NCBI GenBank assembly: GCA_964621395.1
Contig: CAZULS010000001.1
Coordinates: 135,920-199,919 of the forward strand
Direction: 5' to 3'
Source of the DNA: an uncultured Candidatus Saccharibacteria bacterium
GTDB lineage: Bacteria > Patescibacteriota > Minisyncoccia > Phycocordibacterales > JACNGX01
DNA length: 64,000 bases
Of the stretch, positions 1,701 to 40,402 are shown one piece after another. The position numbers and the translations under genes were made by a program. Under the pieces are notes generated by a model that did not search any database, was not told the DNA's origin, and saw only the letters and a list, made by a program, of their open reading frames with translations. How positions within the stretch are numbered: position 1 is the stretch's first letter; every line of letters begins with the position of its first letter.

Positions 1701-1778
1701 CGAGTTTCGAGACGGCGCGCTCACGCGCGCCGAGAAGAAAAAGCGGGGCGGCCTTTGGTCGCCCCGCTTTTTCCATAC

Positions 1779-3591: not shown

Positions 3592-3662
3592 GCGGGTATA
3601 GTTTAGTGGTAGAATATCTGCCTTCCAAGCAGAGGACGGGAGTTCGATTCTCCCTACCCGCA
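3592..3662 (+). tRNA. tRNA-Gly (anticodon UCC)
   Basis: GCGGGTA acceptor stem pairs with TACCCGC; D-loop AGTTTAGTGGTAGAA; anticodon stem TCTGC/GCAGA with loop CTTCCAA giving anticodon TCC; T-arm GGGAGTTCGATTCTCCC; discriminator A; no encoded CCA. Confidence 0.9.
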
Positions 3663-6034: not shown

Positions 6035-6742
6035 ATGACCAAGAACACACATAAAGAATTGATGTCCACTATCAAATCGTTGCGGACCGAGAAAGGATTC
6101 TCGCAGGAGCAGACAGCTTCTGCTATCGGCGTTTCGCGCCCGACCTATACAGCCATTGAAGCAGGTAAGCAAAAACTTGATGTTGAAGAGGCGAAAAAGC
6201 TCGCGGTGTTTTTAGGTATTGATGTTGAAGATATCGTGTATGAAGATGTGTCGAATTTGGAAAAGTATAAACACATGATTCTTGCATATCTTCGCGCAAA
6301 GGTGTCGGACGATGGAAAGGTGACAAAGACGAAACTTGCCAAACTCTTGTATCTGGCTGATTTTGCGTGGTATTACGATCACATGAAAAGTATGAGTGGT
6401 ATGCGATATCGTCGTTTACAGTATGGTCCGGTACCAGACATGTTTTTTCGCGCACTCGCGGAGCTTGAAGACAGTGGGAAGATTGTTGTGGAACGGAAAG
6501 ATATGGAGGAAAGAGAAATGTTTCTTATTAGCGAATCTGAGAGCAACAAGAACGATCCTCTTGAGAAGGTGGGAACTGATGAGGTTTCCCTTATTAAGAG
6601 CATCGCAAAAAAGTGGAAAGATAAAAAAACGCAAGATATTGTGACTTTCACACATAATCAATTGCCATATCGGATTTGTCGTGATAATGAGATTATCCCT
6701 TATGAGCTCATCACACAGGAGGATTCCGACCTGGTGTATTAG
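6035..6742 (+). CDS. Antitoxin candidate: N-terminal XRE-family HTH + C-terminal Panacea (DUF4065/SocA-like) domain
   Basis: HTH: LRTEKGFSQEQTASAIGVSRPTYTAIEAGKQKL. Panacea-like core: TKLAKLLYLADFAWYYDHMKSMSGMRYRRLQYGPVPDMFFRAL (KLLYLAD ... Y.YGPV pattern). Downstream ORF starts 4 nt after its stop. Confidence 0.55.
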   Translation: MTKNTHKELMSTIKSLRTEKGFSQEQTASAIGVSRPTYTAIEAGKQKLDVEEAKKLAVFLGIDVEDIVYEDVSNLEKYKHMILAYLRAKVSDDGKVTKTKLAKLLYLADFAWYYDHMKSMSGMRYRRLQYGPVPDMFFRALAELEDSGKIVVERKDMEEREMFLISESESNKNDPLEKVGTDEVSLIKSIAKKWKDKKTQDIVTFTHNQLPYRICRDNEIIPYELITQEDSDLVY

Positions 6743-6745
6743 GGT

Positions 6746-7150
6746 ATGCCAGGGACATGTTCTGTTACAATTGAATCTTTTGCGGAAAGTCATTATGTGA
6801 AGACGTTTGAAAAGAGGCACAAGTGGCACTGGGATGTAACTCGTCGCGCCATTATCGCCGAGCTTGAACGTATTGAAGCACTTCTTCTCACCGACAAGGC
6901 GGATTGTATTTGTGAGCAGGATGGTGTTGCCATTGTAAAAGTGGATTTCAAGGTGGCGGGAACAAAAGGGTCAGCAAAAAAGTCCGGTAACAGATGTATT
7001 GTTGCGTGGCATAAAGATAATGAAAAAGTCTCTATACTTTTGTTATACGGAAAGACAAATTTGCCAGGTAGAGGGAAAAATGAGACCGCGGTATGGAAAA
7101 AGATGGTGAGAGAGCAGTATCCCGAATATAGATATTTGCTAAAGAGCTAG
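6746..7150 (+). CDS. Toxin candidate partnered with the Panacea-domain antitoxin; weak RelE/ParE-superfamily-like C-terminus
   Basis: 134 aa; operonic with 6035..6742 (4-nt gap); C-terminal KSGNRCIVAWHKDNEKVSILLLYGK resembles the RelE/ParE beta-strand core (g.yR.iy.v ... v.il.i.h); otherwise unassigned. Confidence 0.35.
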   Translation: MPGTCSVTIESFAESHYVKTFEKRHKWHWDVTRRAIIAELERIEALLLTDKADCICEQDGVAIVKVDFKVAGTKGSAKKSGNRCIVAWHKDNEKVSILLLYGKTNLPGRGKNETAVWKKMVREQYPEYRYLLKS

Positions 7151-8412: not shown

Positions 8413-9968
8413 GCGTACTCTATAACCTTCGTCTCTCGTATCACATGAACCTTAATTTCTCCCGGATATTTGAGCTCTGTCTCTATCTGACGAGCGATTT
8501 TTTGTGCCAAATCTTTTGCCTGCATATCAGTAATTTTCTCCGGCGACACGAAAATGCGGATTTCCCGCCCCGCTTGGAGGGCAAAACATTTCTCCACGCC
8601 TTCAAACGACAAGGTAATCTTCTCCAAATCTTCCAAACGCTTCAAATATTGCTCAATGGAATCGCGCCGTGCGCCCGGACGTCCGCCTGAAATCGCGTCA
8701 GCCGTTTGCACAATAATAGACTCAAGTGTTTCATACGGATATTCTTCATGATGCGACTGCATTGCCTTCACGATTGCCTCATCAGCACCAAATTTCTGCA
8801 AAATACGGCGACCGATTTCCACGTGGGTGCCCTGCACCTCATGATCCACCGCCTTTCCGATATCGTGGAGAAGTGCGCCTGCTTTGGCAATAGGCACGCT
8901 TGCCCCGAGTTCCTCAGCAATCATGCCGGCAATATGCGCCATTTCCACGGAATGCTGAAGCACATTCTGCCCGTAGCTGGTGCGGAAGTGTAAACGCCCC
9001 AAAATGGCAATAATGCGCGGATCAAGATTGAGAATACCGCATTCATATGCCGCCTGCTCACCCTTATCTTTAATGATTTTACTGATTTCGTCTTTTGCCT
9101 TGACGATATAATCTTCAATCTTCGCCGGCTGGATGCGTCCGTCTAGAATGAGATTTTCAAGCGCAACGCGAGCAATCTGACGGCGAACCGGATCAAAGGA
9201 AGAAATGGTAATAGCGCCGGGCGTGTCATCAACGATCACATCCACGCCGGCGGCGCGCTCGAATGCTTTGATGTTGCGTCCTTCTTTTCCGATAATCTTT
9301 CCCTTTATTTCATCCGAGGGAAGGGTAATCGTTGTGGAGGTGATATCGGCATTGGTTGCATTGGCATAGCGCTGCACCGCCGTTGTGAGGATCTCTTGTG
9401 CGCGGCGGTCGAGTTTTTCGGTATTGGCGTTTTCAAGCTTCTGAATACGCACAAGCAAATCTTCTTCATATTGCGCCTCAGCACGCTTATACAATTCCTC
9501 GCGAGCTTCCTCGGAGGAAAGATTGCCAACACGCTCCAATTCTTTTTGCTGCTCTTCTACTGATTTCTCCACTGACTCGCGAATTCCCTTCACTTCCTCG
9601 ATGCGATGTTTCACTTCTTCAATCTGCTTGTCGATATCAAGCTGACGCTTATCCAGGAAGTCTTCTTTTTTCACCAAACGCTGTTCAAGTTCTTTGGCGT
9701 CTGCCTTCTTCTCCTTCGCCTCCTTCTCAGCGTCTCTTAACACGTGCTCCGCTTTTTTCTCCGCTTCGTGTGTGATTTTTGTTGCCGCTTCTTCCGCCGA
9801 AAGACGCATGCGTTTGATCTCAAGCTCCATGCTGCCCTTTTTCCCGAGGGAGATGATGAAACGCAGGAAATACCCGAGGGCGACTCCGACGAGCACGGCG
9901 CCTCCGGCTATCAAAAACATAAAAAGAGTAAAGCTCATACCTGCATGTTCCTCCGAACACGACAACAC
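8406..9968 (-). CDS. rny: Ribonuclease Y
   Basis: 520 aa; N-terminal TM, coiled-coil, KH domain (IIGKEGRNIKAFE) and HD domain (LLHDIGKAVDHE). Confidence 0.9.
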   Translation of the reverse strand: MLSCSEEHAGMSFTLFMFLIAGGAVLVGVALGYFLRFIISLGKKGSMELEIKRMRLSAEEAATKITHEAEKKAEHVLRDAEKEAKEKKADAKELEQRLVKKEDFLDKRQLDIDKQIEEVKHRIEEVKGIRESVEKSVEEQQKELERVGNLSSEEAREELYKRAEAQYEEDLLVRIQKLENANTEKLDRRAQEILTTAVQRYANATNADITSTTITLPSDEIKGKIIGKEGRNIKAFERAAGVDVIVDDTPGAITISSFDPVRRQIARVALENLILDGRIQPAKIEDYIVKAKDEISKIIKDKGEQAAYECGILNLDPRIIAILGRLHFRTSYGQNVLQHSVEMAHIAGMIAEELGASVPIAKAGALLHDIGKAVDHEVQGTHVEIGRRILQKFGADEAIVKAMQSHHEEYPYETLESIIVQTADAISGGRPGARRDSIEQYLKRLEDLEKITLSFEGVEKCFALQAGREIRIFVSPEKITDMQAKDLAQKIARQIETELKYPGEIKVHVIRETKVIEYAR

Positions 9969-10096
9969 AGGGCTTTCATTCAGGCGTACGACAAACTATG
10001 CGCGCATGGGTGTTATGCGACGCGAAAAGAAAAGACGAAAAGCGTTGAAACGAAAATCCAAAATCATACGTGTTCGTAATGGAAAGATAATTTCGA

Positions 10097-10285
10097 GAGC
10101 CTGTTCACGGTTCTCATGTCGTGCGTTAATGCATCATATACCGAGCGAAAATCGTGAAAAACGGTGATAGAGTACTATCGTACTTTGAGACGTTTTGAGC
10201 GATTTGCAGCCGGTATATGGTGCATTAAGCCGACAAGGATATATTGTTCTTCGTTTAATTCCGTTGAGAACTGTGAACAGGCTCT
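10097..10285. mobile_element. Family-C MITE (189 bp) with 19-bp TIRs GAGCCTGTTCACGGTTCTC / GAGAACTGTGAACAGGCTC
   Basis: Inverted termini read directly; near-identical internal sequence to the copy at 17903-18090 (opposite orientation) and the partial copy at 52690-52812. Confidence 0.7.
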
Positions 10286-10525
10286 AGGCCACACTGCCTA
10301 TCATGTATGCCGTGTAAGACAGTGTGGAGGACTAATAACCTATACCCTGAGTGTACTATGGAATGGCTAAAATGGCAAATATCTTGGGAGCTTATAGCTG
10401 GTAGCTTGTAGCTTATAGAAAAAAGGCGCGCTGACGCGCGCCTCTCTGGGGATATCCAAGACAATTGACCGTAAGCGCTTGTCGTGCTATGAATAATGCA
10501 GTTGTACTTGCATAACTAAAATTCA

Positions 10526-11329
10526 GTGAAAATGAAAAAAGATGATCGGTTACCGGGAAGGTTTACATTGTGCCGCTTCAGAGTTCTTGTATTTCTCGAG
10601 AATCATGGAGCAGGTTGGATACCTCTCCTTTTTGAGAAACCACAAGGGGCCATTGTATTTGGATATATTCCAGGCGCCTGTATTCTTGGTATTATAGGCG
10701 CTTGGAGTCTGTGGGCTCTTTTGGGTACGTTGGTTGCTGCAGGGGCAGGTATGTTTTGGAGTATCCATTTTCTGTACCAAAGACATCTTCTTTGGTATAA
10801 AAAATATCAGGAAGAATGGGCGCGTCGCTATGATATGATTCTCAGGGCGATTTCTCCGGAAGTTTATGATTCTTTTCAGGAAGATGGGGAGATACCCAAG
10901 GATTCGTTTTGTGCAATGAACATTCTTGCCAACTTGAAACCGAGACTATCAGCGGAGCTTTTGGGAGACTATGATGATTCAACAAAAATCAGGCTCTTGG
11001 AATCGTTTCAGAATGAAATAGGACGCACATATTTCAGACTCCCTCTTTTATTTATCGGATACGATGAAATAGTCAAAGTTATTGATTCGTTTACGAGTAG
11101 GAAGGTTTTTCTTAAACCAGAGGACTATGTCGGTGGAGATACCTCTCTTATTGATGCGATTTTAAAATGCCAAGATTACATGTTGGAGAAGAATGATGAG
11201 ACAATCAGTCAGATAAGAGAAACTTTTTCAAAGCATAAGGAAAACGATATCGATCAAATAGGTGTCATTAAAGCGTACTTTTCTGAAAGGGAGACAGCTC
11301 GTAGAAGACATGTGGAACAAGCCGGGTAA
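10526..11329 (+). CDS. Hypothetical membrane protein
   Basis: 267-aa ORF; two N-terminal hydrophobic helices (GAIVFGYIPGACILGIIGAWSLWALLGTLVAAGAGMFW); no recognised domain. Confidence 0.35.
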   Translation: MKMKKDDRLPGRFTLCRFRVLVFLENHGAGWIPLLFEKPQGAIVFGYIPGACILGIIGAWSLWALLGTLVAAGAGMFWSIHFLYQRHLLWYKKYQEEWARRYDMILRAISPEVYDSFQEDGEIPKDSFCAMNILANLKPRLSAELLGDYDDSTKIRLLESFQNEIGRTYFRLPLLFIGYDEIVKVIDSFTSRKVFLKPEDYVGGDTSLIDAILKCQDYMLEKNDETISQIRETFSKHKENDIDQIGVIKAYFSERETARRRHVEQAG

Positions 11330-11390
11330 TTCCGGCTTTTTTTGTGTCCTTTCTTTTCAAAGTCTTTTCATATATACTGTCCGTATCGGT

Positions 11391-11594
11391 ATGTATGAGA
11401 AGCTGAAGAATTATGCGACGAGGATTGATGCCGAGGCGGACGGCGCAGTGCTGAAAGTGCACGGTGTTCCCTACATATTGTCATCCGACGATGCCGGTGG
11501 CATGCGCCCCGATGTTGGGATGTCAACGGGAGGCGTGTGGCTGTCTGTTGATGAAAAAGACATCGACACGGCACGAACCATTCTCAATGTATAA
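11391..11594 (+). CDS. Small DUF2007-like protein
   Basis: 67 aa from MYEKLKNYATRIDAEADGAVLKVHGVPYILSSDDAGGMRPDVGMSTGGVWLSVDEKDIDTARTIL; resembles the DUF2007 fold pattern; a -10-like TATATACT lies 10 nt upstream. Confidence 0.35.
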   Translation: MYEKLKNYATRIDAEADGAVLKVHGVPYILSSDDAGGMRPDVGMSTGGVWLSVDEKDIDTARTILNV

Positions 11595-11636
11595 TTTTTT
11601 GTCTATTAATTTCCTAATTTTTTAATCTCCTAACCT

Positions 11637-12233
11637 ATGCTTATTCCCACAGTTATCGAAAAATCACAATTTGGTGAGCGCGCGTATGATATTTATTCGC
11701 GTTTGCTTAAGGAGCGTATTATCTTTTTGGCAGGACCGATTGATGATGCTGTTGCCAATACGGTGATTGCCCAGCTCCTGTTTCTTGAGTCTGAAGATCC
11801 AAAGAAAGACATCAGCTTGTATATCAATTCGCCGGGCGGGTATGTGCATGGAGGGTTGGCGATTTATGATACGATGCAGCACATTAAGCCGGCTGTCTCT
11901 ACGATTTGTGTCGGTATGGCCGCTTCTATGGCATCGGTGATTCTCTCAGGGGGCGAGAAAGGGAAGCGATTTGTATTGCCGCGCGCGGAAGTGATGATTC
12001 ATCAGCCGCTTGGTGGCGTGGAAGGACAGGCGAGTGATATTGAAATCTCCGCAAAGCATATTTTGAAACAGCGCGCGCTTCTGAATAAAGAGCTTGCGAA
12101 AAATACCGGCCAGACATTGGCGAAAATCGAAAAAGACGTAGAACGCGATTTCTTCATGGATGCCGAAGAAGCGAAGAAGTACGGCATTGTGGACGCGATT
12201 TTGAAAGAGAAGAATGGGAAGAAAGAACGATAA
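11637..12233 (+). CDS. clpP: ATP-dependent Clp protease proteolytic subunit
   Basis: 198 aa; [17 protein letters not shown], catalytic Ser context GMAASMAS, His in MIHQP; tandem TAATCTCCTAA motif immediately upstream of the ATG. Confidence 0.95.
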
Positions 12234-12272
12234 TGATAAACAGAAAACGATAAACGATAAACTAAACTAACA

Positions 12273-12304
12273 AGCGGCGCCTAATGGCGCCGCTTGTGTG
12301 TTGT
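12273..12304 (+). terminator. Terminator after clpP (GCGGCGCC-TAAT-GGCGCCGC + TGTGTGTT), preceded by ACGATAAAC tandem motif
   Basis: Read directly. Confidence 0.55.
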
Positions 12305-12335
12305 GTAAAAAAGGCACCGCGTAGCGGTGCTGAAC

Positions 12336-12644
12336 TTAGTCACTTCCATACGGAAAGTGCCCGAAAAATGCTTTGCTTTCCAGCCAAGACACAAGGAAGC
12401 GACAAAGTCTCTTGAGGATTCGGAAGACAATGAATCCTACTGAAAACCATATCCCTGAAATTTTTAATGTCTCCAAATGGTCACTACTTGTGCCGATAGT
12501 GAATACCACAAAAAATAGAGCAACAAGGAACGGTGCCCACGCGTAGGCGACATGTCTTTTCGGAACTATGTCGAAAAAGCAGTGATTCCATATTGGGATT
12601 GTGAAGAATCCCATCACGAAAGAGACGCACATAAGGATTGTCAT
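12336..12644 (-). CDS. Hypothetical small membrane protein
   Basis: 102-aa ORF with three hydrophobic segments; terminator hairpin GGCACCGC-GTAG-CGGTGC just downstream (12307-12334). Confidence 0.25.
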   Translation of the reverse strand: MTILMCVSFVMGFFTIPIWNHCFFDIVPKRHVAYAWAPFLVALFFVVFTIGTSSDHLETLKISGIWFSVGFIVFRILKRLCRFLVSWLESKAFFGHFPYGSD

Positions 12645-12779
12645 AGCATCCTCCTTTACAGGAAAAAGTTAAGAAATTTTTTCTATAGGCGAATATACTA
12701 CAAGGTACGTTATTTCGCAAGGGAAAGCGGCGCGGTCTTTGAGGACCGCGCCGCTTATTCTTTTTCAGGAATCAAACGA

Positions 12780-13928
12780 TTATTTCATCCCTTCCAAAAA
12801 GATAAAGACTGCATCGTTGGTGAGAATGGTTTCCACGTATACGCGCACGTTATCTTCTCCTGCATCTTTGTATTGTTCAAGAAGCGCTTTTGTTTCTTCC
12901 TCCAGGCGTTTTGCATCAGGTTGGATGTTTTCCGTGACGGCAATTTTGTTCAATACAAGCTGTGTCTTTGCGCGCTTTTCAGCGTCGGGGCGCCATTCTT
13001 TTCGCAAATCTTCACGCTCTTTTTTGATGTGCTTGAGGTATTCATCAAATTTGAGCCCCATGCGCGCGATATCGCTCTCAAATTGTGCCATCATGCGATC
13101 GAGTTCACCCTCAATCATCACTCCGGGAACCGACACCTTCGTTCCTTCGAGGATTGCATCCATAATAAGGCCACGATGTTTCTGTGCTTCACGGTGTGTT
13201 TTCTCGTGAAGCATATTGTCTTTGAGTTGTTTTTTGAAATCGTTCACATCTTTGAAATTACCCAAACCTTTGGCAATCTCATCAGTGAGCTCGATAGGGG
13301 TATTATCTTTCTTGGCCGACCGAGCGCCACTTTTATCTTCTTTTGAAAGAGGTGCTCGGTTTAGGCTCTTTTCTTCCTCATTCTTTTCACTTTCCTCGGA
13401 AGGAGATGTCTCAGCATCAGCCATGTCGGCCTCGGCAGCTCGTTGCTTCAAAATTTGCTGAATCGTCTCTTCTACTTCCGCATCGGAAACGCTTACCTTC
13501 TCTTTCTTTTCATTTGCTTCTTTGGCAGCTTTTTTATAATCAGGAAGAACAACCTCAGGCATCACCGCTACAGTAACAGAAAAACCGAGAGGGGAGCCGG
13601 CACCGATTTTGGTAATGGAAATTTCCGGACGGCCAATAATCTGAATGTCTTTGGCAAGAATAAGCTGCGGATAATGCGCCGCGATGGTGTCGCGAGCCAT
13701 CTCTTCCAAGATGCCCATATCGCCAATATGCTTTTTGAGCACATCTTCCGGCACATGACCCTTGCGAAAGCCATCAATGGATACGTGTTCGGAAAGCTTT
13801 TTCACGACACGTGCACGATGTTTTTCCATTTCATCAAAGGGAAGCTCGCCGAGAATGGTAACGGTGGAATCATCATTTTTGGTGACGGTAAATCCGTCGT
13901 AGAGTGTGTTTGTGTTTGTTTCTGACAT
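12780..13928 (-). CDS. tig: Trigger factor lacking the PPIase domain; carries an in-frame 57-bp palindromic insertion
   Basis: N-terminal ribosome-binding domain with GFRKGHVP signature and a C-terminal chaperone arm. The FKBP/PPIase module is replaced by an approx 44-aa acidic low-complexity linker that contains the palindromic element (13311-13367, encodes SLNRAPLSKEDKSGARSAK). Confidence 0.85.
   Translation of the reverse strand: MSETNTNTLYDGFTVTKNDDSTVTILGELPFDEMEKHRARVVKKLSEHVSIDGFRKGHVPEDVLKKHIGDMGILEEMARDTIAAHYPQLILAKDIQIIGRPEISITKIGAGSPLGFSVTVAVMPEVVLPDYKKAAKEANEKKEKVSVSDAEVEETIQQILKQRAAEADMADAETSPSEESEKNEEEKSLNRAPLSKEDKSGARSAKKDNTPIELTDEIAKGLGNFKDVNDFKKQLKDNMLHEKTHREAQKHRGLIMDAILEGTKVSVPGVMIEGELDRMMAQFESDIARMGLKFDEYLKHIKKEREDLRKEWRPDAEKRAKTQLVLNKIAVTENIQPDAKRLEEETKALLEQYKDAGEDNVRVYVETILTNDAVFIFLEGMK
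13311..13367 (-). repeat. 57-bp palindromic element in-frame inside tig (sense: AGCCTAAACCGAGCACC...GGCGCTCGGTCGGCCAAG)
   Basis: Same conserved termini (AGCCTAAAYCGAGC ... GCTCGRTCGGCCRAG) and identical length (57 bp = 19 codons) as the copy inside nusA; related shorter copies sit at recJ and rplE 3' ends. Confidence 0.7.
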
Positions 13929-14197
13929 AATATAGGAACCTGCCTCGCATTAAAACATGTTAATAAATATTCCACGTTTTCACGTGTCCATTCGACAGCT
14001 CTCGTAACAAAAATCCGGCTGCAACTTGTCGTTCAATTTAGTCGTGTGATAGCACGGCTAAATCTCCACGACGGTGTTTCGCTCGAATTTTTTTCACGAG
14101 AGCAAGTCGTTTAATACGAGGCAGATTCCCCCGAGTGTACCTCAAAAGAACAGAAAAGGCAAAAAACAATTACGTCACCCCTGATTGCGTCTTAGTC

Positions 14198-15028
14198 TTA
14201 CGAAGAATTTATTAACTCACTTATTCTCAAAGCAAAAAATTCTTTCGTAATGACTTTTATTCCCGCTTCATTAGTATGCCAATTGTCTTTTGAAAATTCT
14301 TTCGAAACCCTGTCGGTGTTTATTCTCACAAGTTCTGTTCCGGGAAAAGACATTTTTTGAAAATGTGCCCACCCGCGTCGTTGAGAGAACGGCGAGTTAA
14401 CCAGAATGATTTTTTGATGAGGGACGTCTGATTGCTCTAAAAGATTAAGAGACCGTTTTACATTATCAGGGACGGTGATTGACTGATCTTCGCTAATAAT
14501 ATCGTCTTCAGGAACTCCGTTCTGGACGGCAAATGTTTTCAACATATTCGCCTCAGCCTCTTGCACAATATCTTTCTCATAAAAGGGCGATTTGCCGCTT
14601 ACGAGTATGTAGGGTGCCAGACCTTGTTTGTATAACTCAATTGCTTTCTCCATGCGAAACGTTTTCTTTCCGCCAAAGACAAAAATAATATCAGCGTGCT
14701 CAAGAGAATCTTCCTCGGAAAGATAATCATATAGTGCGTTAAACAACACTTTGTTCTCCGGATTGGTATCTGAGAGAATCGCCTTGCTTAAGTTTTGAAA
14801 TAATTCAACAGTCTCATTAAAAAGACGTTCGTCAGCAAAATCTTCGAAAGTGAATTTATTTGTGAAAAAGTTATTTGGTAAATGATACGCTTGGAGAAGG
14901 TCGAGGACTGAGGAAAAGTCCGCATAGTGGGATAACTCTTTTTCTTTGGGGATGACTCGCTTGTCTTCGTACGCGAGAATATGACAGAGTTCATTATATG
15001 TTGGGAGTTGCGCGGGATTTGTTCGCAT
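14198..15028 (-). CDS. DUF218/YdcF-like (ElyC/SanA family) protein
   Basis: 276 aa; core IIFVFGG ... ILVSGK ... pattern of DUF218. Confidence 0.4.
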   Translation of the reverse strand: MRTNPAQLPTYNELCHILAYEDKRVIPKEKELSHYADFSSVLDLLQAYHLPNNFFTNKFTFEDFADERLFNETVELFQNLSKAILSDTNPENKVLFNALYDYLSEEDSLEHADIIFVFGGKKTFRMEKAIELYKQGLAPYILVSGKSPFYEKDIVQEAEANMLKTFAVQNGVPEDDIISEDQSITVPDNVKRSLNLLEQSDVPHQKIILVNSPFSQRRGWAHFQKMSFPGTELVRINTDRVSKEFSKDNWHTNEAGIKVITKEFFALRISELINSS

Positions 15029-15146
15029 AAATTATAGTATATGTGATTCTTGTTTCTTGTCCACATTTCTATTTTAAAAGGAAGGGTTGCATCCAAAAGA
15101 ATGGGGGAGTATAATGAGTGAGTACTCACTTTAATCACTCAGGCAT

Positions 15147-16034
15147 ATGCTCACAAAATTTTTCTCAGACCTTCTCATAAAATCGGGTAAGGCGCCGGTA
15201 TTCGACAACCCCGCCGACTATGGTCTTGAGTATGAAGATGTTACATTCACTACCGACGATGGTGTAGAACTTTCAGGATGGCTTATCAAAGGAGGGACCG
15301 ACAAGGTCATTATCCAGACGCACTTTGGTATTCAGTCTTCTCGCAGCGGTTTTACCCTCAAGGGCAAAAACCCCATGACCAGACTGCTCTGGAATGATGA
15401 TATTCATTTTCTCAAGCAAGCAAAATATCTGCAAGAAGCCGGATACTCGGTGCTCATGTATGATATGCGTAATCACGGCAAGAGCGACAGAGGGGTAAGT
15501 GAATGGATTCAATATGGCCTCGATGAACGCAAGGATGTACTTGCGGCGGTGGAATATATTTCCGGCAGGGAGGAATATCAAAATGCTGCCATAGGGCTTC
15601 TGAGCATCTGTATGGGTGCGGCAGCGACAACATTTGCCTACGGTATGGAAGAAAAAATGAGGCAGCATGCGAATGTAAAAGTCGTAGTCGCTATTCAACC
15701 ACTGACGTATGATCATTTTGTGCGGGTGCTTGGTCTCCCTGAGAACATGATTGCGCGGATCAATGCCTTCAATAAAGAAGAGCGAGGGGTTGATCTCACA
15801 GGGGATTCATTTTTGTCAAGCGCAAAGCATGTCACCGTCCCCACGCTTCTGGTGCAGAATCAAAATGATCCGATGACCAATATGGATATGGTGAAGCAAT
15901 ATTTCGAAGATCTTCCCGAAGAGAAAGAAATGCTCTGGCTTGACCTCAAGAAAAAACGCGGTGCGGCGTATGACTGGCTTACCAAAACACCGGAGCCGAT
16001 TCTCCGTTGGTTTGATGCTTATGTCCGTCCGTAG
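15147..16034 (+). CDS. Alpha/beta hydrolase-fold protein (possible Cys/Ser nucleophile LSICMGAA)
   Basis: 295 aa; HG oxyanion-like HFGIQSS, nucleophile elbow region GLLSICMGAAAT, C-terminal His; paralogous arrangement with the next ORF. Confidence 0.55.
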   Translation: MLTKFFSDLLIKSGKAPVFDNPADYGLEYEDVTFTTDDGVELSGWLIKGGTDKVIIQTHFGIQSSRSGFTLKGKNPMTRLLWNDDIHFLKQAKYLQEAGYSVLMYDMRNHGKSDRGVSEWIQYGLDERKDVLAAVEYISGREEYQNAAIGLLSICMGAAATTFAYGMEEKMRQHANVKVVVAIQPLTYDHFVRVLGLPENMIARINAFNKEERGVDLTGDSFLSSAKHVTVPTLLVQNQNDPMTNMDMVKQYFEDLPEEKEMLWLDLKKKRGAAYDWLTKTPEPILRWFDAYVRP

Positions 16035-16062
16035 CTAGAAACCATCTCATAGTACATGGTTT

Positions 16063-16168
16063 ATCCAGCCCCACTTTCACTGATTACCTCAACGTGTCCT
16101 TTCTCGTTAGAAATGAACATTAACGAAACATGGTAACAATACACAAATGAGTGAAAGTGGGGCTGGAT
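16063..16168. mobile_element. Family-E MITE (106 bp), TIR ATCCAGCCCCACTTTCACTGA / TGAGTGAAAGTGGGGCTGGAT
   Basis: Perfect 21-bp inverted termini read directly, in the spacer between the two hydrolase genes. Confidence 0.7.
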
Positions 16169-16262
16169 TGCCAAGCATCTACACGAAGTGTAAAGTATTA
16201 TTTTGAGCGGTTTAATATGAGATGGGTTCTAGTATCATTATCAGTATTATTTTTTAACGCGT

Positions 16263-17318
16263 ATGAATACACACAACAAAGTGCTGAAGATTGTGGGATA
16301 TGTCGCTGCCATTTGTATCATTCTTCTCGTCGCCTTTAATATCTACGGTCGAACACAGTACAATCCGTCGGGGTTACTCTCTGAAGCGGCTCCCAATCAA
16401 GAATTGCAGGTAGGGAAAAATACGGTTGAATATCTGAGTAATGGAGACAGCATTTCCGCATTCCTCTTTATCCCCGAGGATTATGTGCAGGGGGAGAAGC
16501 GTCCGGCAATTGTGGTGACACCTCCGCACACGGGTGTGAAAGAGCAGACAGCCGGCATGTATGCTGAAGAATTAAGCAAGAAAGGATATATCACGCTGGC
16601 ATTTGACCCGCGAGGATTTGGAGCAAGTGGAGGACACAGGGGATATTTGAGTTCTCCAAGGCAAATTGAAGACTTGGAGCGTTCCTTTGATTATCTCCTC
16701 ACACTTGAGCACATAGATGCCGAGCAGATGTTTAGCTTGGGTATGTGTGCGGGTTCGGGTGTGGCGGCCTATGAAGCGATGAACGATTCACGCATTCAGG
16801 CACTTGCCATTGTGAGCCCGTATCTGACAGGAGCAAGAGATAATGGAGGGGAATCACCATTCATAAAGAATGCAGTCTACGCGCTCCATGGTTTCCTCAA
16901 GACATATCATGCACTTACCGGAGGCGATGTCGTGCGATCGCTCGTTCCCACAACGGATGAAGAAGCGAAAGGGGCAAATGCGATAACCAAGGGCATGATG
17001 GAGTATTATTTACCGGGGACGCCCGGGGGTGTTCCGAACTGGAGCAATGATTTGAGCGCACTCTCAGTATTGCCGGTTATTGAATTCTCCATTTTTGATT
17101 ACCCTCGCGGATTCGACACAATCCCCACGCTTACGGTATACGGCTCGGAAGCGGTGAGCAAAGATGGGGCGATGATGTTCTATGACATGGTGGGAGGTCC
17201 GAAGGAGGAGCTTGTCCTTGAGGGTGCGGGACATTTTGAGCTGTATTGGATGCCGGAGTATGTTGGTCCGGCAGTTGAGAAGATCGATGAGTTCTTCAAG
17301 AAGTATGGTGCTCGATAA
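16263..17318 (+). CDS. Dienelactone-hydrolase-like alpha/beta hydrolase with N-terminal TM anchor
   Basis: 351 aa; GMCAGSG (GxCxG Cys nucleophile typical of the DLH family); TPPHTG; DPRGFGASGG. Confidence 0.6.
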   Translation: MNTHNKVLKIVGYVAAICIILLVAFNIYGRTQYNPSGLLSEAAPNQELQVGKNTVEYLSNGDSISAFLFIPEDYVQGEKRPAIVVTPPHTGVKEQTAGMYAEELSKKGYITLAFDPRGFGASGGHRGYLSSPRQIEDLERSFDYLLTLEHIDAEQMFSLGMCAGSGVAAYEAMNDSRIQALAIVSPYLTGARDNGGESPFIKNAVYALHGFLKTYHALTGGDVVRSLVPTTDEEAKGANAITKGMMEYYLPGTPGGVPNWSNDLSALSVLPVIEFSIFDYPRGFDTIPTLTVYGSEAVSKDGAMMFYDMVGGPKEELVLEGAGHFELYWMPEYVGPAVEKIDEFFKKYGAR

Positions 17319-17353
17319 AAGATACTGTAATAATAAATGTTTGCACAATATCT

Positions 17354-17902
17354 ATGACCAAAAAAGAGAAATTATTACAAACAGCACTGGAGCTATTTGC
17401 CACACAAGGCGTGGGCAATACCTCTACGGCTCAGATTACACAGGAAGCTGGTGTGGCTGAAGGGACACTCTTTGTGCATTTCAAAAACAAACAAGCACTT
17501 GTCGATGCTGTGTATACACACATTAAAGCGCATGAGGCGGAAGTGTTTGGAGAGGCAATTCATCAAGAAAAAAGCGCGGAGGCTAATGTTAAAGAACTGT
17601 CAAAGAGCATGGTCCGACATTTTGTGGAACACTACAATGAATTGTTGTTTATTGAGAACGTGAAGCACTTGGATTTGGTGTCGGAGAAAGCTGTGAAGGA
17701 AGCGCATACATCACTTACCGTACTTTTTGAAGTGTTTGCAACGTGGCAAAAGAGAGGAGAGATAAAGGCGGTTGATTTGAATGTACTTGGTGCCATGGTG
17801 TGGGCAATGATAGTATCGCTCACAGAATATTGTAAGAAGAATAACAAAAAAGTCACCGATATGTTGGTGGAGCCGATTTGGGATGCGGTCAAGTCTCACT
17901 AA
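17354..17902 (+). CDS. TetR/AcrR family transcriptional regulator
   Basis: 182 aa; N-terminal HTH LLQTALELFATQGVGNTSTAQITQEAGVAEGTLFVHFKNKQALVDAVY. Confidence 0.8.
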   Translation: MTKKEKLLQTALELFATQGVGNTSTAQITQEAGVAEGTLFVHFKNKQALVDAVYTHIKAHEAEVFGEAIHQEKSAEANVKELSKSMVRHFVEHYNELLFIENVKHLDLVSEKAVKEAHTSLTVLFEVFATWQKRGEIKAVDLNVLGAMVWAMIVSLTEYCKKNNKKVTDMLVEPIWDAVKSH

Positions 17903-18090
17903 GAGCCTGTTCATGGTTCTCAACGGAATTGAAAGAAAAAGAATAAATCCTTGTCGGCTTAATACACTGTTATACCGGCTGCAAATCGCTTAAAATGTCT
18001 TGAAGTACGAGAGTACTCCCGCGCCATTTTTCACGATTTTCGCTCGGTATAACAGTGCATTACGCACGACAAAGAACCATGAACAGGATC
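17903..18090. mobile_element. Family-C MITE (188 bp), TIR GAGCCTGTTCATGGTTCTC / AGAACCATGAACAGGATC; begins 1 nt after the TetR stop codon
   Basis: Near-identical to 10097-10285 in inverse orientation. Confidence 0.7.
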
Positions 18091-18104
18091 TAACATCGCC
18101 AAAT

Positions 18105-18140
18105 AAAAAACAACACCCGCATGCAGGTGTTGTTTTTTGG
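18105..18140. repeat. 36-bp hairpin AAAAAACAACACC-CGCATGCA-GGTGTTGTTTTTTGG (copy 1), flanks TA cassette
   Basis: Identical copy at 18765-18800; the two copies bracket the antitoxin-toxin pair. Confidence 0.7.
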
Positions 18141-18180
18141 TTTTGTTTCCTGTTAGTGCATTTCATGGTAAGATGATTAT

Positions 18181-18426
18181 ATGAGCAAAACAGAAAAACA
18201 GAAAAAAGAAGCGATGGTTCGTGTGCCTCTGTCGGCGTTCAGATCGCTTTCGCGGTATCCGCGGGAAAAGAAAATCGTCGTGGAAATTTCCACGGACGAT
18301 ATTGCGCGTGTCAACAAAGCGGAAACACTTGATGAAATTATCAACGAAGCACGTCTTGAATACGCGACCGGAGATTACACGACACACAGAACGGCGAAAA
18401 GTGTTATTGCCACGCTTGAAGCATAA
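18181..18426 (+). CDS. Type II antitoxin candidate (partner of downstream RelE/ParE toxin)
   Basis: 81-aa ORF ending 2 nt before the toxin ORF; typical upstream-antitoxin arrangement; family not assigned. Confidence 0.45.
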   Translation: MSKTEKQKKEAMVRVPLSAFRSLSRYPREKKIVVEISTDDIARVNKAETLDEIINEARLEYATGDYTTHRTAKSVIATLEA

Positions 18427-18428
18427 GT

Positions 18429-18698
18429 ATGATACACGTCAATGTTTCTCCGCGTTTCAAGCGGGCATATAAAAAGTTGCCGCGCCATATTAAAAACAGT
18501 TTTCAGAAACGTGTAGAAGTGTTTGCGGAAGATCCGTGGCATCCATCGCTCAAAACACACAGACTCAAGGGTGCGTATCAGGAGTGTCTGTCTTTCAGAC
18601 TTGATGACGGCTACCGAGTGCTTTTTGAATTCTCTTCCGCGCATGCCGTGGATCTCTTAGATGTCGGACCGCACGACTTATATCGTAAGCGACGGTAG
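18429..18698 (+). CDS. RelE/ParE-family type II toxin
   Basis: 89 aa; C-terminal LKGAYQECLSFRLDDGYRVLFEFSSAHAVDLLDVGPHDLY matches the RelE/ParE core. Confidence 0.65.
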   Translation: MIHVNVSPRFKRAYKKLPRHIKNSFQKRVEVFAEDPWHPSLKTHRLKGAYQECLSFRLDDGYRVLFEFSSAHAVDLLDVGPHDLYRKRR

Positions 18699-18764
18699 AA
18701 ATGTATCTGTGTTCCTATGGCTTGTTCCAAAGATAAGGTGTGTCCAGAACCAAACAGAAGGTAT

Positions 18765-18800
18765 AAAAAACAACACCCGCATGCAGGTGTTGTTTTTTGG
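18765..18800. repeat. 36-bp hairpin AAAAAACAACACCCGCATGCAGGTGTTGTTTTTTGG (copy 2)
   Basis: Identical to 18105-18140; also a plausible bidirectional terminator between the toxin (+) and the 18818 ORF (-). Confidence 0.7.
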
Positions 18801-18817
18801 TGAACTTGTTTTAATGT

Positions 18818-19180
18818 TTACGCTCCGAGTTCCGCTTCAATGGCATCGAGCTCCGCGTCGAGATTATCGAGGTCGGTTGTGTTGAGGTCTTCCTCAATGT
18901 CGGTGATGTCGGTTGACGTGCTCTGCTCTTCGGAAAGCGCCTCAAGTTGCGAGTCGGGAGCATTCAAGATATCTTCGACGGTAACGTCACCGGCTTCATA
19001 TTCACTCATACGTTCATCGATTTTTTGACCCCAGAAATAGAGTCCGCCGATGATAATCACAGCAACAATGAGAATGATACCGATTGCCGATCCCCATGAG
19101 CTCTTTTCTTCTGGAGCTGGTGTCGGAGGAGTGGTATTCTCTTGATTGAATTCTTGATTCATATTGGGTGTTGTCTCCAT
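18818..19180 (-). CDS. Hypothetical membrane-anchored acidic protein
   Basis: 120 aa; one TM helix (IGIILIVAVIIIGGLYFW) followed by an acidic, D/E/T-rich tail. Confidence 0.3.
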   Translation of the reverse strand: METTPNMNQEFNQENTTPPTPAPEEKSSWGSAIGIILIVAVIIIGGLYFWGQKIDERMSEYEAGDVTVEDILNAPDSQLEALSEEQSTSTDITDIEEDLNTTDLDNLDAELDAIEAELGA

Positions 19181-19358
19181 AGATGATTTGGTTATGAGAA
19201 TAATTATACCATCCCCGATTCACCACTGCAAAGCACTTTTTCATCATTTCGAGCGAAAAACGAGTTGGAGCCCGAAACGTATCGAGATACGTTAAGGGCG
19301 AAACCGGTTTTCTCGCCGAAATGCTGGAACAGTGCGCAGAAGTGAATTGGGGCTGGTA

Positions 19359-20414
19359 TTATTCCGTATCACCGGATGTATTGCCTTTAAGGTGTCGAAT
19401 GGCTTCTTTCAAATCGGCGCGAGCCTCTCGTACTTCCTCGGCCGCTGCGCGAATTGCTTCTTTCACGATTGTGATGGATTCACGCGGAGTCTCTGTGGCA
19501 AGTGCATCTGCGGAGAGTGTTGCAACATCAGCAAGATATTCAGCTGCCGCCTCAAGGTGGTCGCGAGCGGCGTCAACCGATGTCTGCGCATCTGATGTAT
19601 CAATACCTTCGGACTCAAGGATGGCAATGCGCTCTAGAGTGCGGTCGGCAAGCTTCGAGAGGCGGTCGATGGCTGCATTGATACGGTCAATCAAACGAGC
19701 GATATAGGCATCGATCCGGTCTTTGGCGTTCTCTTTCAATTCCTCTTTCTTTTCTTCCCAATTCTCTTTAATTTCACCGCGTTTTTCTTCCACTTTTGCG
19801 CGTACTTCATCCAAACGATTCTTCACGTCTTCCTTCTTCTCGGCGATATGCGTGCATCGTTCTTCAACGTCTGTGCAGGTTACTTCGTCGATTTTCACAC
19901 ATTCATTTGTGTGTGCGGCATCTGTTGTGGTTGTGGTGTCTTCGGAAAGCTCTTCACATTTTGCTTTGAGCTTCTCTTTTACTTCTTCACAAGTGGTGGT
20001 ATCGGAACACGCGGCAATAATCCAACGAGGGATTTCTGAGAGATGGTCATGAGCTTTTGTCTTGATGGCCTCAATACGGTCGGCATGTGATTCTTTTACG
20101 TCTTGCATGCGTTCTTTTGCCGCCTCAACGGCATTGTGCATGTGTTCGCGGTGGTTCTTTACTGCTTCTATCGGACGTACTTTTTGTACAGATGGAGTTC
20201 CATCGGGCTTTCCCGCATTTCCCGGAGTGTGTCCTCTCCCTGTCGACGGAACAGAGCCGTCTTCGGTAGAGATTGGCATGACCTGAGCCTGATCGGCATG
20301 TGTTTTTACAGCTCTGTTGGGTGCTCCGGCGGCATCGGTGGGTGGATATACCGCATGCGCGGTTGGCGCCACAAGAAGCGCGGCGAGTGTAAGTGTGATG
20401 AATGTATGTTTCAT
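19359..20414 (-). CDS. Secreted coiled-coil protein with Cys-containing segment (hypothetical)
   Basis: 351 aa; signal peptide MKHTFITLTLAALLVAPTAHA; long E/K-rich heptad-like region. Confidence 0.4.
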   Translation of the reverse strand: MKHTFITLTLAALLVAPTAHAVYPPTDAAGAPNRAVKTHADQAQVMPISTEDGSVPSTGRGHTPGNAGKPDGTPSVQKVRPIEAVKNHREHMHNAVEAAKERMQDVKESHADRIEAIKTKAHDHLSEIPRWIIAACSDTTTCEEVKEKLKAKCEELSEDTTTTTDAAHTNECVKIDEVTCTDVEERCTHIAEKKEDVKNRLDEVRAKVEEKRGEIKENWEEKKEELKENAKDRIDAYIARLIDRINAAIDRLSKLADRTLERIAILESEGIDTSDAQTSVDAARDHLEAAAEYLADVATLSADALATETPRESITIVKEAIRAAAEEVREARADLKEAIRHLKGNTSGDTE

Positions 20415-20451
20415 AGTATTGAATATATGTGTCTTCTGACAATTATGACAT

Positions 20452-20519
20452 TAGAACCAGTCCCATTGAAAACGTGAAAAAAGAAGATTACATTCACGTT
20501 TTCAATGGGACTGGTTCTA
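20452..20519. mobile_element. Family-D mini-MITE (68 bp): 27-bp perfect TIR TAGAACCAGTCCCATTGAAAACGTGAA / TTCACGTTTTCAATGGGACTGGTTCTA
   Basis: Read directly; the termini match the approx 200-bp family-D copies at 23871-24069 and 59423-59620. Confidence 0.7.
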
Positions 20520-20603
20520 GTATATCAGAAATCGGGAATCGTCCATAATCGGTGTGTATAGCCACGAAACATCCCCCTTCAGGGGGATTTTTCGTGGCAA
20601 GTA

Positions 20604-21134
20604 TTACTCACCGTATTTCTCGCGATACAAATCAAAGGAATGCTGTACTGCTTCCACGGCCGCTTCACGACCCTTCCATTCGTCCACTTCCACCTTCTTC
20701 TTCTCAAGATCTTTGTATACGGAGTAGAAATGTTTTGTCTCTGAGAGCAGGTGCGGTTCAAGGTCGGAGATGTCTTTAGTGTTCGCGAAGCGCGGATCCG
20801 TTACCGGTACCGCCAACACTTTCGCATCACCGTCACCATCGTCTTTCATGTCGAGTACTCCGATGACACGCGCTTCCACAAGTGCTCCCGGCACAATCTC
20901 TTCGTGCGCAAGCACAAGCACATCAAGCGGGTCGCCGTCTTCCCAGAGGCTGCGGGGCACAAAACCATAATTGGTCGGATAGTGCATGGGGGAGTAAAGC
21001 ACACGGTCAAATTGAATGAGCCCGGTGTCTTTGTCGAGTTCGTATTTTACGCGCGAGCGTTTTGGGATTTCAATGATTACATTGACTTCGTCGGGAGTGT
21101 TTTTCCCGGCGGAAACATCATGCCAGAGATTCAT
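20604..21134 (-). CDS. ppa: Inorganic pyrophosphatase
   Basis: 177 aa from MNLWHDVSAGKNTPDEVNVIIEIPKRSRVKYELDKDTG ... DPLDVLVL ... VIGVLDMKDDGDGDAKVL. The track ORF is extended 54 aa upstream into repeat sequence. Confidence 0.9.
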   Translation of the reverse strand: MNLWHDVSAGKNTPDEVNVIIEIPKRSRVKYELDKDTGLIQFDRVLYSPMHYPTNYGFVPRSLWEDGDPLDVLVLAHEEIVPGALVEARVIGVLDMKDDGDGDAKVLAVPVTDPRFANTKDISDLEPHLLSETKHFYSVYKDLEKKKVEVDEWKGREAAVEAVQHSFDLYREKYGE

Positions 21135-21284
21135 ATTTAATGAGAATGACGAATTAAGAATAATGAATGAAGAATATATGAAGCATAGCGCGAGAAAAGG
21201 TAGGGTGCAAGGGGTATGGACTCCAAATGTACGAATAGATACAAATCTACAAATGGTACGAATGGGCACAAATACTTCCTTTGT

Positions 21285-21369
21285 TGTCATTCCCAACTTG
21301 ATTGGGAATCTTCGTTGTTTTGTTTCTGAGAATTATTTGAGAAGATTCTGAATCAAGTTCAGAATGACA
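21285..21369. mobile_element. Family-A hairpin-ended MITE (GTCATTCCCAACTTGATTGGGAATC ... GATTCTGAATCAAGTTCAGAATGAC), with a solo half copy at 21395-21440
   Basis: Two terminal stem-loops with termini TGTCATTC / GAATGACA; the family recurs at least 12 times in the window. Confidence 0.65.
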
Positions 21370-22080
21370 AGTAACAACCCCTATAAGCCACATATCTGTC
21401 ATTCCCGACTCGATTGGGAATCTTCGTTGTTTTGTTTTCGAAAAAACAGAACCCCCGAACAAAATTGTCAGGGGTTCGAGGCTGCGCCAGCTTTTGAGCT
21501 TGCAGCCTTGCCTTATGGTAACCGAGTTATTCGCGCTGGTCAGCGAATATGGTGTGGTCGGCACCGGCGGCAGCTGAGGCAATAGTGGTATTTTTTTCTC
21601 CAAAAGGTTCAGCGGCATGGCCGAACGGAGGTGAGTGGGTACAAAGCTTTTTCATAAGCTTATCTCCTCATCTTTTTGAGTTAATCCGCAATCCTACAAT
21701 GGAACATGCGGAAAAAATGCTTACAGAAACACACTACCAAAGAACACATTGTCCCCTATATCCTGGTAAGATAAGACAAAGTTGGAACCAATCAATTGAC
21801 CCCTATTATATACCACTCAAAATATTTGTCAAGCGCATTTTGGGATTTTTTGTACAAAAAGCCAATTTCAACCTTATTTTCCAACATATTTCATGAAAAT
21901 AAAAAACACGGCGGAGCGCGAGCCCCGCCGTGTTTTCCTGGTAAACTGCTCGAAAGCTCGCCCTGTTTTCTTAATATGGCATGTCGTGAAATGTGGCTTA
22001 AACCATATTACCTTATCTTGCTAAAAAACAGCGGGGCTTTGAGCCCCGCCGTTTTCTTTTTGTGTGGTCTTTGTTATTTT

Positions 22081-31832: not shown

Positions 31833-31920
31833 TGGTTGCTGGTCCTAGTTGGCGCGGCTTTCGCCGCGCCTTTTCCAATGTCCCCTGGTATTCCGCTTAT
31901 GTATGGGGGATAATATATGT

Positions 31921-40392: not shown

Positions 40393-40402
40393 CACTCCCT
40401 TT

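Follow-up and report, generated by a model that had tools for sequence, protein, structure and literature searches.

This report concerns a small type II toxin-antitoxin (TA) operon on contig CAZULS010000001.1 of assembly GCA_964621395.1, located within an analysed stretch of 64,000 nucleotides (positions 135,920 to 199,919 of the contig) that is referred to here as the window and that supplies all coordinates given below unless another contig is named. The operon encodes a RelE/YoeB-like toxin and is framed by two identical copies of a terminator-like hairpin; it lies between a gene for a TetR-family regulator and a converging gene for a small membrane protein. A related contig, L045, has the same flanks around a single hairpin and represents the empty site of the locus, whose features in the window are the following:

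17354..17902, plus strand: TetR-family regulator gene (Pfam TetR_N, 1.9e-15), with the stop codon TAA at 17900-17902
17903..18090, no strand: MITE (miniature inverted-repeat transposable element) of 188 bp, with the 17-bp terminal inverted repeats GAGCCTGTTCATGGTTC / GAACCATGAACAGGATC
18094..18102, no strand: native 9-bp spacer catcgccaa, which separates the terminator from the TetR stop codon; equivalent to cattgccaa in L045
18103..18141, no strand: left copy of the 39-bp target, with the left junction as in the empty site L045
18142..18762, plus strand: insert of 621 bp, consisting of a 39-bp leader, the TA operon and a 64-bp tail
18166..18174, plus strand: candidate extended -10 element TGgTAAGAT, read by eye, 6 nt before the antitoxin ATG
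18181..18426, plus strand: putative antitoxin gene (81 aa), an upstream partner conserved with the toxin family
18429..18698, plus strand: gene for an 89-aa RelE/YoeB-like toxin, assigned to the RelE/ParE superfamily by Pfam PF15781 and by fold
18763..18801, no strand: right copy of the 39-bp target, orthologous by position to the one terminator that the relatives possess, its right flank homologous to L045, L025, L046 and L047
18818..19180, minus strand: open reading frame (ORF) for a single-pass membrane protein of 120 aa, converging on the TA operon; predicted owner of the terminator

Read base by base, the direct repeat is perfect over 39 bp (18103-18141 = 18763-18801; 39/39 positions identical; ATAAAAAACAACACCCGCATGCAGGTGTTGTTTTTTGGT). 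The first-pass annotation of this DNA had noticed identical 36-bp copies of the hairpin (AAAAAACAACACCCGCATGCAGGTGTTGTTTTTTGG) at 18105-18140 and 18765-18800, bracketing exactly an antitoxin and a RelE/ParE toxin. Both observations stand, with the identity extended from 36 to 39 bp, and with 621 bp between the copies in which the only ORFs are 18181-18426 and 18429-18698, the toxin passing the PF15781 model. In each copy of the repeat, an 8-nt centre separates two perfectly inverted arms of 13 bp, and the whole has an A6 run on its 5' side and a T6 run on its 3' side; the 39 bp correspond to a 34-bp palindrome (13+8+13) that is extended by 2 nt on the 5' side and by 3 nt on the 3' side. The RNA fold of the hairpin has an energy of -17.5 kcal/mol (z = -3.3 versus shuffled sequences), a consensus terminator scan scored it as terminator-like, and the features of an intrinsic terminator, namely a stem of 13-14 pairs and the A6/T6 runs, are present on both strands. 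The distance from the hairpin to the stop codon of the membrane-protein gene is 17 nt, and that to the stop codon of the TetR gene is 9 nt in the empty site L045. Position and structure thus point to an ordinary bidirectional intrinsic terminator, termination itself being predicted from these two properties.

In the sequences covered, the hairpin shows no sign of being a dispersed repeat family. The window contains exactly two occurrences of the 36-mer, no extra copy turns up there when up to 3 mismatches are allowed (shuffled sequences predict 0 matches), and the number of hairpin copies within these 64 kb is still just two when only the stem is required. Of three public collections, those of metagenome and of viral contigs have 0 exact matches to the 24-nt core of the hairpin, and the reading that the first-pass annotation had itself named as fatal to its proposal, a common terminator present at many unrelated gene ends, did not materialize in these counts. 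A stem-only pattern search of genome contigs gave 30 matches, each of them a single hairpin with an unrelated loop in an unrelated genome; L025 was one of these, and a BLAST search with its flanks revealed the orthologous locus. When exact direct repeats of at least 20 bp, spaced by 100-6000 bp and containing a long stem, were sought in the 386 kb that make up the window and the fetched loci, the repeat studied here was the only one found.

The locus was compared with its counterparts in L045 (Logan SRR20820740), L046, L025 (from the Parcubacteria metagenome-assembled genome NIOZ-UU136), L047/L048 and L049. L045 was found by a protein search with the TetR regulator, of which it encodes a homologue that is 93% identical; L046, L047/L048 and L049 were fetched via homologues of the 120-aa membrane protein. 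A second metagenome scan with this membrane protein yielded nothing beyond that NIOZ contig and a distant relative (L043).

To the left of the site, L045 and the window share 95.3% identity across 875 bp, a stretch that runs up to the TetR stop codon; to the right, they share 94.9% across 448 bp, from the hairpin into the membrane-protein gene. The intergenic sequence of L045 consists of cacTAA, cattgccaa, ATAAAAAACAACACCCTCATGCGGGTGTTGTTTTTTGGT and gagtatttttta in this order, that is, the TetR stop codon, the 9-bp spacer, a single 39-bp hairpin, and the flank and stop codon of the converging membrane-protein gene; it contains neither the MITE nor the TA genes. The search among related strains for an empty site with a single hairpin, which had been proposed at first pass, was thus successful at 95% sequence identity. 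In the junction alignment of L045 with the window there are 3 substitutions, none of which affects a junction base. The outer junctions ccaa/ATAAAA (left) and TTGGT/ga (right) are the same in both sequences, and only the two inner junctions are new. Because the approximately 95%-identical L045 holds the arrangement X-R-Y (R denoting the 39-bp repeat, X and Y its flanks) where the window holds X-R-(621 bp)-R-Y, the TA pair is an insertion; it is set between native outer junctions, and the segment that is duplicated around it is the resident, lineage-specific one.

The insert is absent from L045, L046, L025, L047 and L049. A single hairpin is found 20-35 nt past the stop codon of the membrane-protein gene in L045, L046, L025, L047/L048 and L049, and one hairpin follows this gene in every orthologue studied (79-99% protein identity). 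L025 is syntenic with window positions 9061-21135 at approximately 80% nucleotide identity and has one hairpin directly after the membrane-protein gene, with a pilin-like gene replacing window positions 13932-18764. In L046 (membrane protein 92% identical), one hairpin is followed by DUF218 and the trigger-factor gene; in L047/L048 (84%), by a gene for a 155-aa protein and the trigger-factor gene; and in L049 (79%), by the trigger-factor gene immediately. Across six lineages, the hairpin has a 15-pair consensus stem in which 4 pairs have been retained via compensatory changes on both sides. Because its position and stem are conserved in lineages that lack the TA pair, the membrane-protein gene is predicted to have in this hairpin its resident, conserved terminator. 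A nested gene-gain hotspot lies between the trigger-factor gene and the hairpin (window 13932-18764), and its contents vary by lineage: there is nothing in L049, a pilin-like gene in L025, the 155-aa gene in L047, DUF218 in L046, at least the second hydrolase gene and the TetR gene in L045 (where the contig ends), and DUF218, two hydrolase genes, the TetR gene, the MITE and the TA pair in the window.

The loop of the hairpin reveals which sequence was duplicated. It reads CCCGCATGCGGG in the outgroup L046, CCCTCATGCGGG in L045, and CCCGCATGCAGG in both window copies, which have in common a substitution that is specific to the window lineage. Because both copies carry this substitution, it was resident DNA that became duplicated, and the copying (or homogenisation) postdates the divergence from L045. 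By parsimony over the five lineages with a single hairpin, R-TA-R would be the derived state. The first-pass annotation had suggested that the module was mobilised together with its hairpin in a cassette-like fashion. One half of this suggestion survives, in that the empty site exposes the TA pair as an inserted, cassette-sized unit; the other half does not, since the hairpin is a resident terminator in five TA-less lineages, the outer junctions are native, the loop base is lineage-specific, and homologous TA modules elsewhere lack flanking repeats.

The two ORFs of the insert, antitoxin and toxin, make up its entire coding content; they have the same orientation, and the end of the antitoxin ORF is separated from the toxin start by 2 bp. 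The toxin matches the Pfam model PF15781 (ParE-like_toxin) with 31.6 bits, above the cutoff of 28, and scores under the cutoffs of the YoeB and RelE models of NCBIfam. Its 39 homologues, at 51-85% identity, reside mostly on Patescibacteria-type metagenome contigs. An AlphaFold model that was built on the homologue alignment (pLDDT, the predicted local distance difference test score, 88.6) has as its best Foldseek matches 1wmi RelE, 7v6w YoeB, 4fxe RelE and 4mmj YafQ (template-modelling score, TM, 0.72-0.75; E ~1e-5), and the residues H82 and Y85 close to the C-terminus are nearly invariant among the homologues. The protein hence resembles the ribosome-dependent mRNA interferases RelE, YoeB and YafQ in its fold, in its C-terminal H and Y residues and in the small antitoxin gene upstream; it differs from the solved toxins of this group in that its sequence identity to them is just 10-25% and in that its antitoxin stands outside the curated antitoxin families. 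Fold and motif suggest a RelE/YoeB-like RNase rather than a ParE-type gyrase poison, and the latter reading was dropped with fold matches dominated by the RelE, YoeB and YafQ RNases. Because of these same matches, an insertion caused by DNA breakage through the toxin is unlikely.

The antitoxin has no match in Pfam, NCBIfam or the PDB sequences; it is 90% (L041), 69% (L032) and 41% (L038) identical to upstream partners of related toxins, with a conserved C-terminal motif. The comparisons place the pair among the ordinary modules of the RelE/ParE superfamily, its antitoxin being unclassified and its toxic and neutralising activities predicted. Its closest relative at the DNA level is L041, with 85.7% identity over 18179-18717. 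A consensus promoter scan called no promoter at 18166-18174; the extended -10 candidate read there by eye would imply a leaderless or near-leaderless mRNA. The 64-bp tail of the insert is devoid of a terminator of its own.

A compositional anomaly of the insert was considered and rejected, as the GC content of 45.2% is unremarkable beside the 46.7% of the window (35th percentile). No terminal inverted repeats were found at the insert ends, where only a 3-nt GGT coincidence and a weak 10-nt complementarity, both judged to be due to chance, were noted; features of a transposon or MITE are missing, as the insert has no terminal inverted repeats and the duplication comprises 39 bp and is not short (2-14 bp). 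No integrase or transposase gene is present among the ~27 window ORFs that were scanned with Pfam (roughly half of the window ORFs). Flanking repeats were not found around TA homologues elsewhere (~10 loci in 3 contexts), a search of the insert in plasmids and viral contigs gave no match, and an Rfam scan reported tRNA-Gly only, with no match at the TA locus. The exact toxin and antitoxin proteins are absent from the gene index, which is uninformative, as short contigs may go unindexed. The window contains a further likely TA-type module at 6035-7150, in which a protein with HTH_3 and antitoxin-like SocA/Panacea domains (6035-6742) is followed by an ORF of 134 aa (6746-7150).

We suggest, as a quite probable explanation, that the TA operon was inserted at the terminator with a 39-bp long target duplication, and that the hairpin belongs to the host and is not part of the cargo. 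A promoter-bearing TA operon of 621 bp would have entered an intergenic region of about 60 bp in a chromosome of the Parcubacteria type, that is, of the candidate phyla radiation (CPR). The landing point would have been exactly the bidirectional terminator common to the TetR operon and the converging membrane-protein gene, and 39 bp of resident DNA (the 34-bp palindrome and its adjoining 2 nt and 3 nt) would have been doubled by the event, giving X-R-(TA)-R-Y. The near-symmetrical boundaries of the duplication at the base of the palindrome suggest an opening of the strands (or of sister copies) at either end of the hairpin or cruciform. Openings of this kind, one per base of the palindrome with approximately 39 bp between them, could have come about by structure- or symmetry-guided nicking of the duplex or of a cruciform, or by breaks on two sister copies; the incoming DNA, probably acquired via transformation, would then have been incorporated, with filling of the gaps. 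For this host group, such an uptake is plausible, as the window contains type IV pilus genes. After the insertion, the left copy would end the TetR unit, and the right copy would end both the TA operon on the plus strand and the converging gene on the minus strand. With a terminator on each side, the autoregulated TA operon would consequently be insulated from read-through from both directions, and this two-sided insulation may be the reason why the insertion was tolerated. The two 39-bp repeats would also allow recombination or slippage to remove the cassette precisely and so to restore the empty site.

Several points speak against this explanation. It is built on a single event, with no second example in the 386 kb and hence no sign of a dedicated mechanism, and no enzyme was identified for the insertion. 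The final structure is formally identical to that of a Campbell-type integration through 39 bp of homology. The closest relative of the TA pair, L041, is a contig of 545 bp without the native flanks of a donor. The activities of the terminator and of the TA pair are predictions, and the copy counts and the recombinase search are confined to 64 kb of the genome, so that further copies of the hairpin or a recombinase may exist elsewhere. Finally, the identity of the two repeat copies is weak evidence for a recent event, as 39 bp stay identical at 5% divergence with p ~0.14.

Among known processes, long-target-duplication insertion, here with a TA cargo and a whole terminator as the target, is the class that fits best. 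Nobusato et al. 2000 (Gene 259:99) reportedly described insertion with long target duplication for restriction-modification (RM) gene complexes. In the RM systems for which it is documented, more than 30 bp are duplicated, no mobility genes are involved and the species are mostly naturally competent; the mechanism is unknown, and DNA breakage by the restriction enzyme has been proposed as the cause (Furuta, Abe and Kobayashi 2010, NAR 38:2428, PMC2853133). The locus studied here shares with these RM insertions a small addiction-type unit (well below 20 kb) without a transposase, an integrase or any other mobility gene found, direct repeats of more than 30 bp, and a related genome in which the empty site has one copy of the repeat. 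The repeat is probably also not multi-copy, with 2 copies in the 64-kb window and no exact match of the core in metagenome and viral contigs. The locus differs in its cargo, a type II TA operon, and is in this respect a variant and not a strict member of the class; breakage by a restriction enzyme is inapplicable to a RelE/YoeB-like RNase, the target is exactly one intrinsic-terminator palindrome, and the host belongs to the CPR/Patescibacteria. Terminators, hairpins and palindromes are not mentioned in the main text of the RM paper (PMC2853133). Our literature search found no report of a terminator duplication at gene insertions, nor of an insertion of this kind for TA modules, an absence that is no proof of novelty.

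Chromosomal type II TA pairs in intergenic regions of core genes are known from E. coli, where ccdO157 lies between folA and apaH, and mazEF between relA and mazG (Fraikin et al. 2020, PMC7167474). Like these, the present operon is a naked TA pair between conserved genes at a strain-variable, plastic locus; unlike these, both of its junctions and its empty site are resolved to the base, and a 39-bp target duplication is apparent.

A more far-reaching reading, to which we attach a low probability, would treat terminator palindromes in general as structure-specific landing pads for naked addiction modules, which would be cut at the bases of the hairpin or cruciform so that the whole terminator is duplicated. 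The strand-opening activity could be provided by the host or be associated with the incoming DNA, which it would capture, the geometry would be like that of Cas1-Cas2 at a CRISPR repeat, and the product would be a ready-insulated TA cassette, excisable by recombination between the repeats. Cas1-Cas2 and casposon integrases carry out staggered attacks on opposite strands at the ends of a palindromic sequence of ~30-37 bp, and the subsequent gap filling duplicates the repeat. Judged by geometry, the repeat duplication at CRISPR spacer acquisition is the closest mechanistic analogy to the TA locus, and it is an analogy only: the insert comprises 621 bp and not ~30, terminal inverted repeats of the casposon type and an array are both missing, and Cas1 was not seen in the window.

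A different proposal, which we consider doubtful, is that a circular or excised cassette of 660 bp, composed of the TA pair and a hairpin of its own, joined the chromosomal hairpin by site-specific or Campbell-type recombination. The hairpin would then play the part of an att, lox or attC-like site that enables the cassette to excise and move. The observed topology is exactly that of attL-cargo-attR, and the 13-8-13 geometry of the inverted arms is that of tyrosine-recombinase core sites such as loxP and FRT (and dif), in which inverted binding arms enclose a spacer of 6-8 bp, a geometry that fits a terminator hairpin equally well. TA modules are, moreover, frequent cargo of integrons and of dif modules. 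Integron cassettes are small and promoter-poor, often carry TA genes, have at their borders imperfect palindromes that undergo recombination in the form of folded hairpins, and can be excised as circles; their attC sites measure roughly 57-141 bp, have the organisation R''-L''...L'-R' with a GTTRRRY core and extrahelical bases, and occur in cassette arrays together with the IntI integrase. The resemblance of the locus to integron cassettes ends with a small TA unit that is bounded by palindromes. With its 34-39 bp, the hairpin is far under attC size, it lacks the R''/L''/L'/R' organisation, the GTTRRRY core and the extrahelical bases, and it exists in two copies that form no array. Neither IntI nor a recombinase cognate to a lox/FRT/dif-type site was detected among the scanned ORFs, no third copy or further site exists in the window, the core is unmatched in the metagenome and viral collections, and homologous TA modules are devoid of such sites. 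In five lineages that have no cassette, the orthologous palindrome is the conserved terminator of the resident gene, and both copies possess the derived loop base of the resident lineage, so that the copy brought in by a cassette would need to have been identical by descent.

Equally doubtful is a route by homology-facilitated illegitimate recombination during transformation, with a close relative that already had the arrangement TA-R-Y as the donor. The segment R-Y would have anchored the incoming strand, and its left end would have been joined illegitimately just past the R of the recipient, leaving R on both sides. The site adjoining the terminator is a recurrent insertion hotspot with lineage-dependent content, type IV pilus genes are found in the window, and the inner left junction is T-rich (TTTTTTGGT/TTTGTTT) and offers possible microhomology, all of which is in keeping with such a route. 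The required donor arrangement, however, is absent from all fetched relatives, the R of the donor would have to be identical over 39 bp, and the position of the joint exactly at the edge of the palindrome, together with the near-symmetrical boundaries, is left to coincidence.

It is very improbable that R-TA-R is the older state and that L045 is a secondary deletion scar left when the two hairpins recombined. A precise deletion can indeed be mediated by a pair of 39-bp direct repeats, and the identity of the copies is not statistically decisive for their age. Nevertheless, four further outgroups (L046, L025, L047 and L049) have one hairpin and no TA pair, the MITE is missing from L045 as well, and the derived base that is shared by the window copies is found in neither L045 nor L046; furthermore, this scenario changes the timing alone, as an initial insertion with duplication would still be needed. 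Finally, an assembly artefact, in which a TA segment from elsewhere or from a small circle was threaded in through the 39-bp repeat, is unlikely and the least probable of all readings: although the window is probably metagenome-assembled and the exact toxin and antitoxin proteins are missing from a gene index that includes the flanking genes, an independent assembly of sample SRR8146440 at k=31 agrees with the window at 100% identity, a contig from it stops exactly at 18772, as expected from the de Bruijn branch of a 39-mer with two continuations, the L045 contig passes straight through its single hairpin, and ordinary reads span 39 bp, so that the assembled path demands the presence of both inner junctions in the reads.

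The insertion with long target duplication that we favour would have taken place in a region that is core chromosome. Upstream of the insert lie two alpha/beta hydrolase genes followed by the TetR gene, which is identical on the Logan contig L001 and 95% identical on L045; beyond the gene for the 120-aa membrane protein, there is a gene for a 351-aa coiled-coil protein. The Pfam-scanned ORFs of the window include those for EF-Tu, ribosomal protein L2, NusA, trigger factor, ClpP, RNase Y, PGK, TIM and type IV pilus proteins.

The MITE that the first-pass annotation had placed immediately upstream at 17903-18090 is corroborated by its 17-bp terminal inverted repeats, by a target duplication of TAA and by other copies in the window. 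The duplicated TAA is found at 17900-17902 and 18091-18093, the target having been the stop codon of the TetR gene; the empty site L045 lacks the element and reads cacTAAcattgcc. The family, of ~190 bp and with 17-bp terminal inverted repeats, has other window copies at ~10098-10287 and ~52678-52830. The MITE is an insertion that is separate from, and independent of, that of the TA operon. The copy at ~10098-10287 has no counterpart in the syntenic L025 and L047, and the family also occurs in a relative from TARA Oceans (L047, 2556-2749); it appears to have been recently active across the clade.

Further observations concern hairpins. The stem AAAACAACACC/GGTGTTGTTTT, terminator-like and with differing loops, is present once each in 30 species (L002-L031), many of them Patescibacteria, and again at a second gene end in L047 (15227-15257); its recurrence across species is probably convergent. 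GC-rich, terminator-like hairpins of the type AAAGCGGCGCGGTC...GACCGCGCCGCTTT, which are 84-90% alike, occupy three distant gene ends in the window (1735-1772, 12719-12763 and 49973-50012) and are also present at the end of the trigger-factor gene in relatives (L046, 3734-3786; L047, 10320-10360), a second instance of near-identical terminators at unrelated sites. A family of short hairpins (TGTCATTCCGCACTTGATGCGGAATC and its complement), similar to repetitive extragenic palindromic (REP) elements, has at least 9-15 intergenic copies on both strands between window positions 3408 and 63886, examples being 21279-21444, 40396-40449, 43686-43738, 45345-45394 and 63803-63886.

Further repeats were seen around a tRNA gene, among the pilus genes and in a relative. 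The last 19 bp of tRNA-Gly(TCC) (3592-3663) are repeated exactly 330 bp downstream (3993-4011) and partly again ~270 bp further on (4265-4274), and a 26-bp exact repeat (3977-4002 and 4249-4274) is found in the same surroundings; these repeats resemble att-type scars of small integrated elements, and no integrase is encoded by the adjoining scanned ORFs. Two adjacent paralogues with a T4SS_pilin domain, 31849-32997 (which has an SLT domain as well) and 33019-34053, contain segments of 327 bp (32070-32396 and 33141-33467) that are 100% identical, which suggests a recent gene conversion or partial duplication. Between 25836 and 30430, in the T2SSE/T2SSF region, all gaps between the type IV pilus genes contain a composite repeat of ~200 bp that is rich in ACGAATA/TTCGTA motifs and is present in four copies that are 68-100% identical. 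In the distant relative L043, a tandem array with a period of 114 bp is located at 1696-2100.

The manner in which TA modules enter chromosomes is an acknowledged open question, and their integration mechanism has been called 'unelucidated' in a review (PMC7167474). The unusual part of the locus is its junction structure; the TA pair and the hairpin are each ordinary. It is a rare natural case, legible at the base level: the empty site and the two junctions are available, the direction of the event is set by outgroups, and no mobility gene was found among the scanned ORFs. Its significance is moderate, in that one cleanly resolved event makes a hypothesis testable without amounting to a demonstrated new mechanism. 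The case indicates that a TA operon can arrive by the long-target-duplication route that has so far been documented for RM systems; because the toxin looks like an RNase and not like a DNA-cutting enzyme, this route is perhaps independent of whether the cargo cuts DNA. The restriction of the target to one palindrome leads to the testable hypothesis of a structure-guided opening at terminators, with the functional consequence that the newcomer gains a terminator on each side. If the landing-pad reading were true and general, it would provide the missing transposase- and integrase-free route by which TA modules, and perhaps RM systems, enter chromosomes, including those of the streamlined, competence-dependent CPR genomes.

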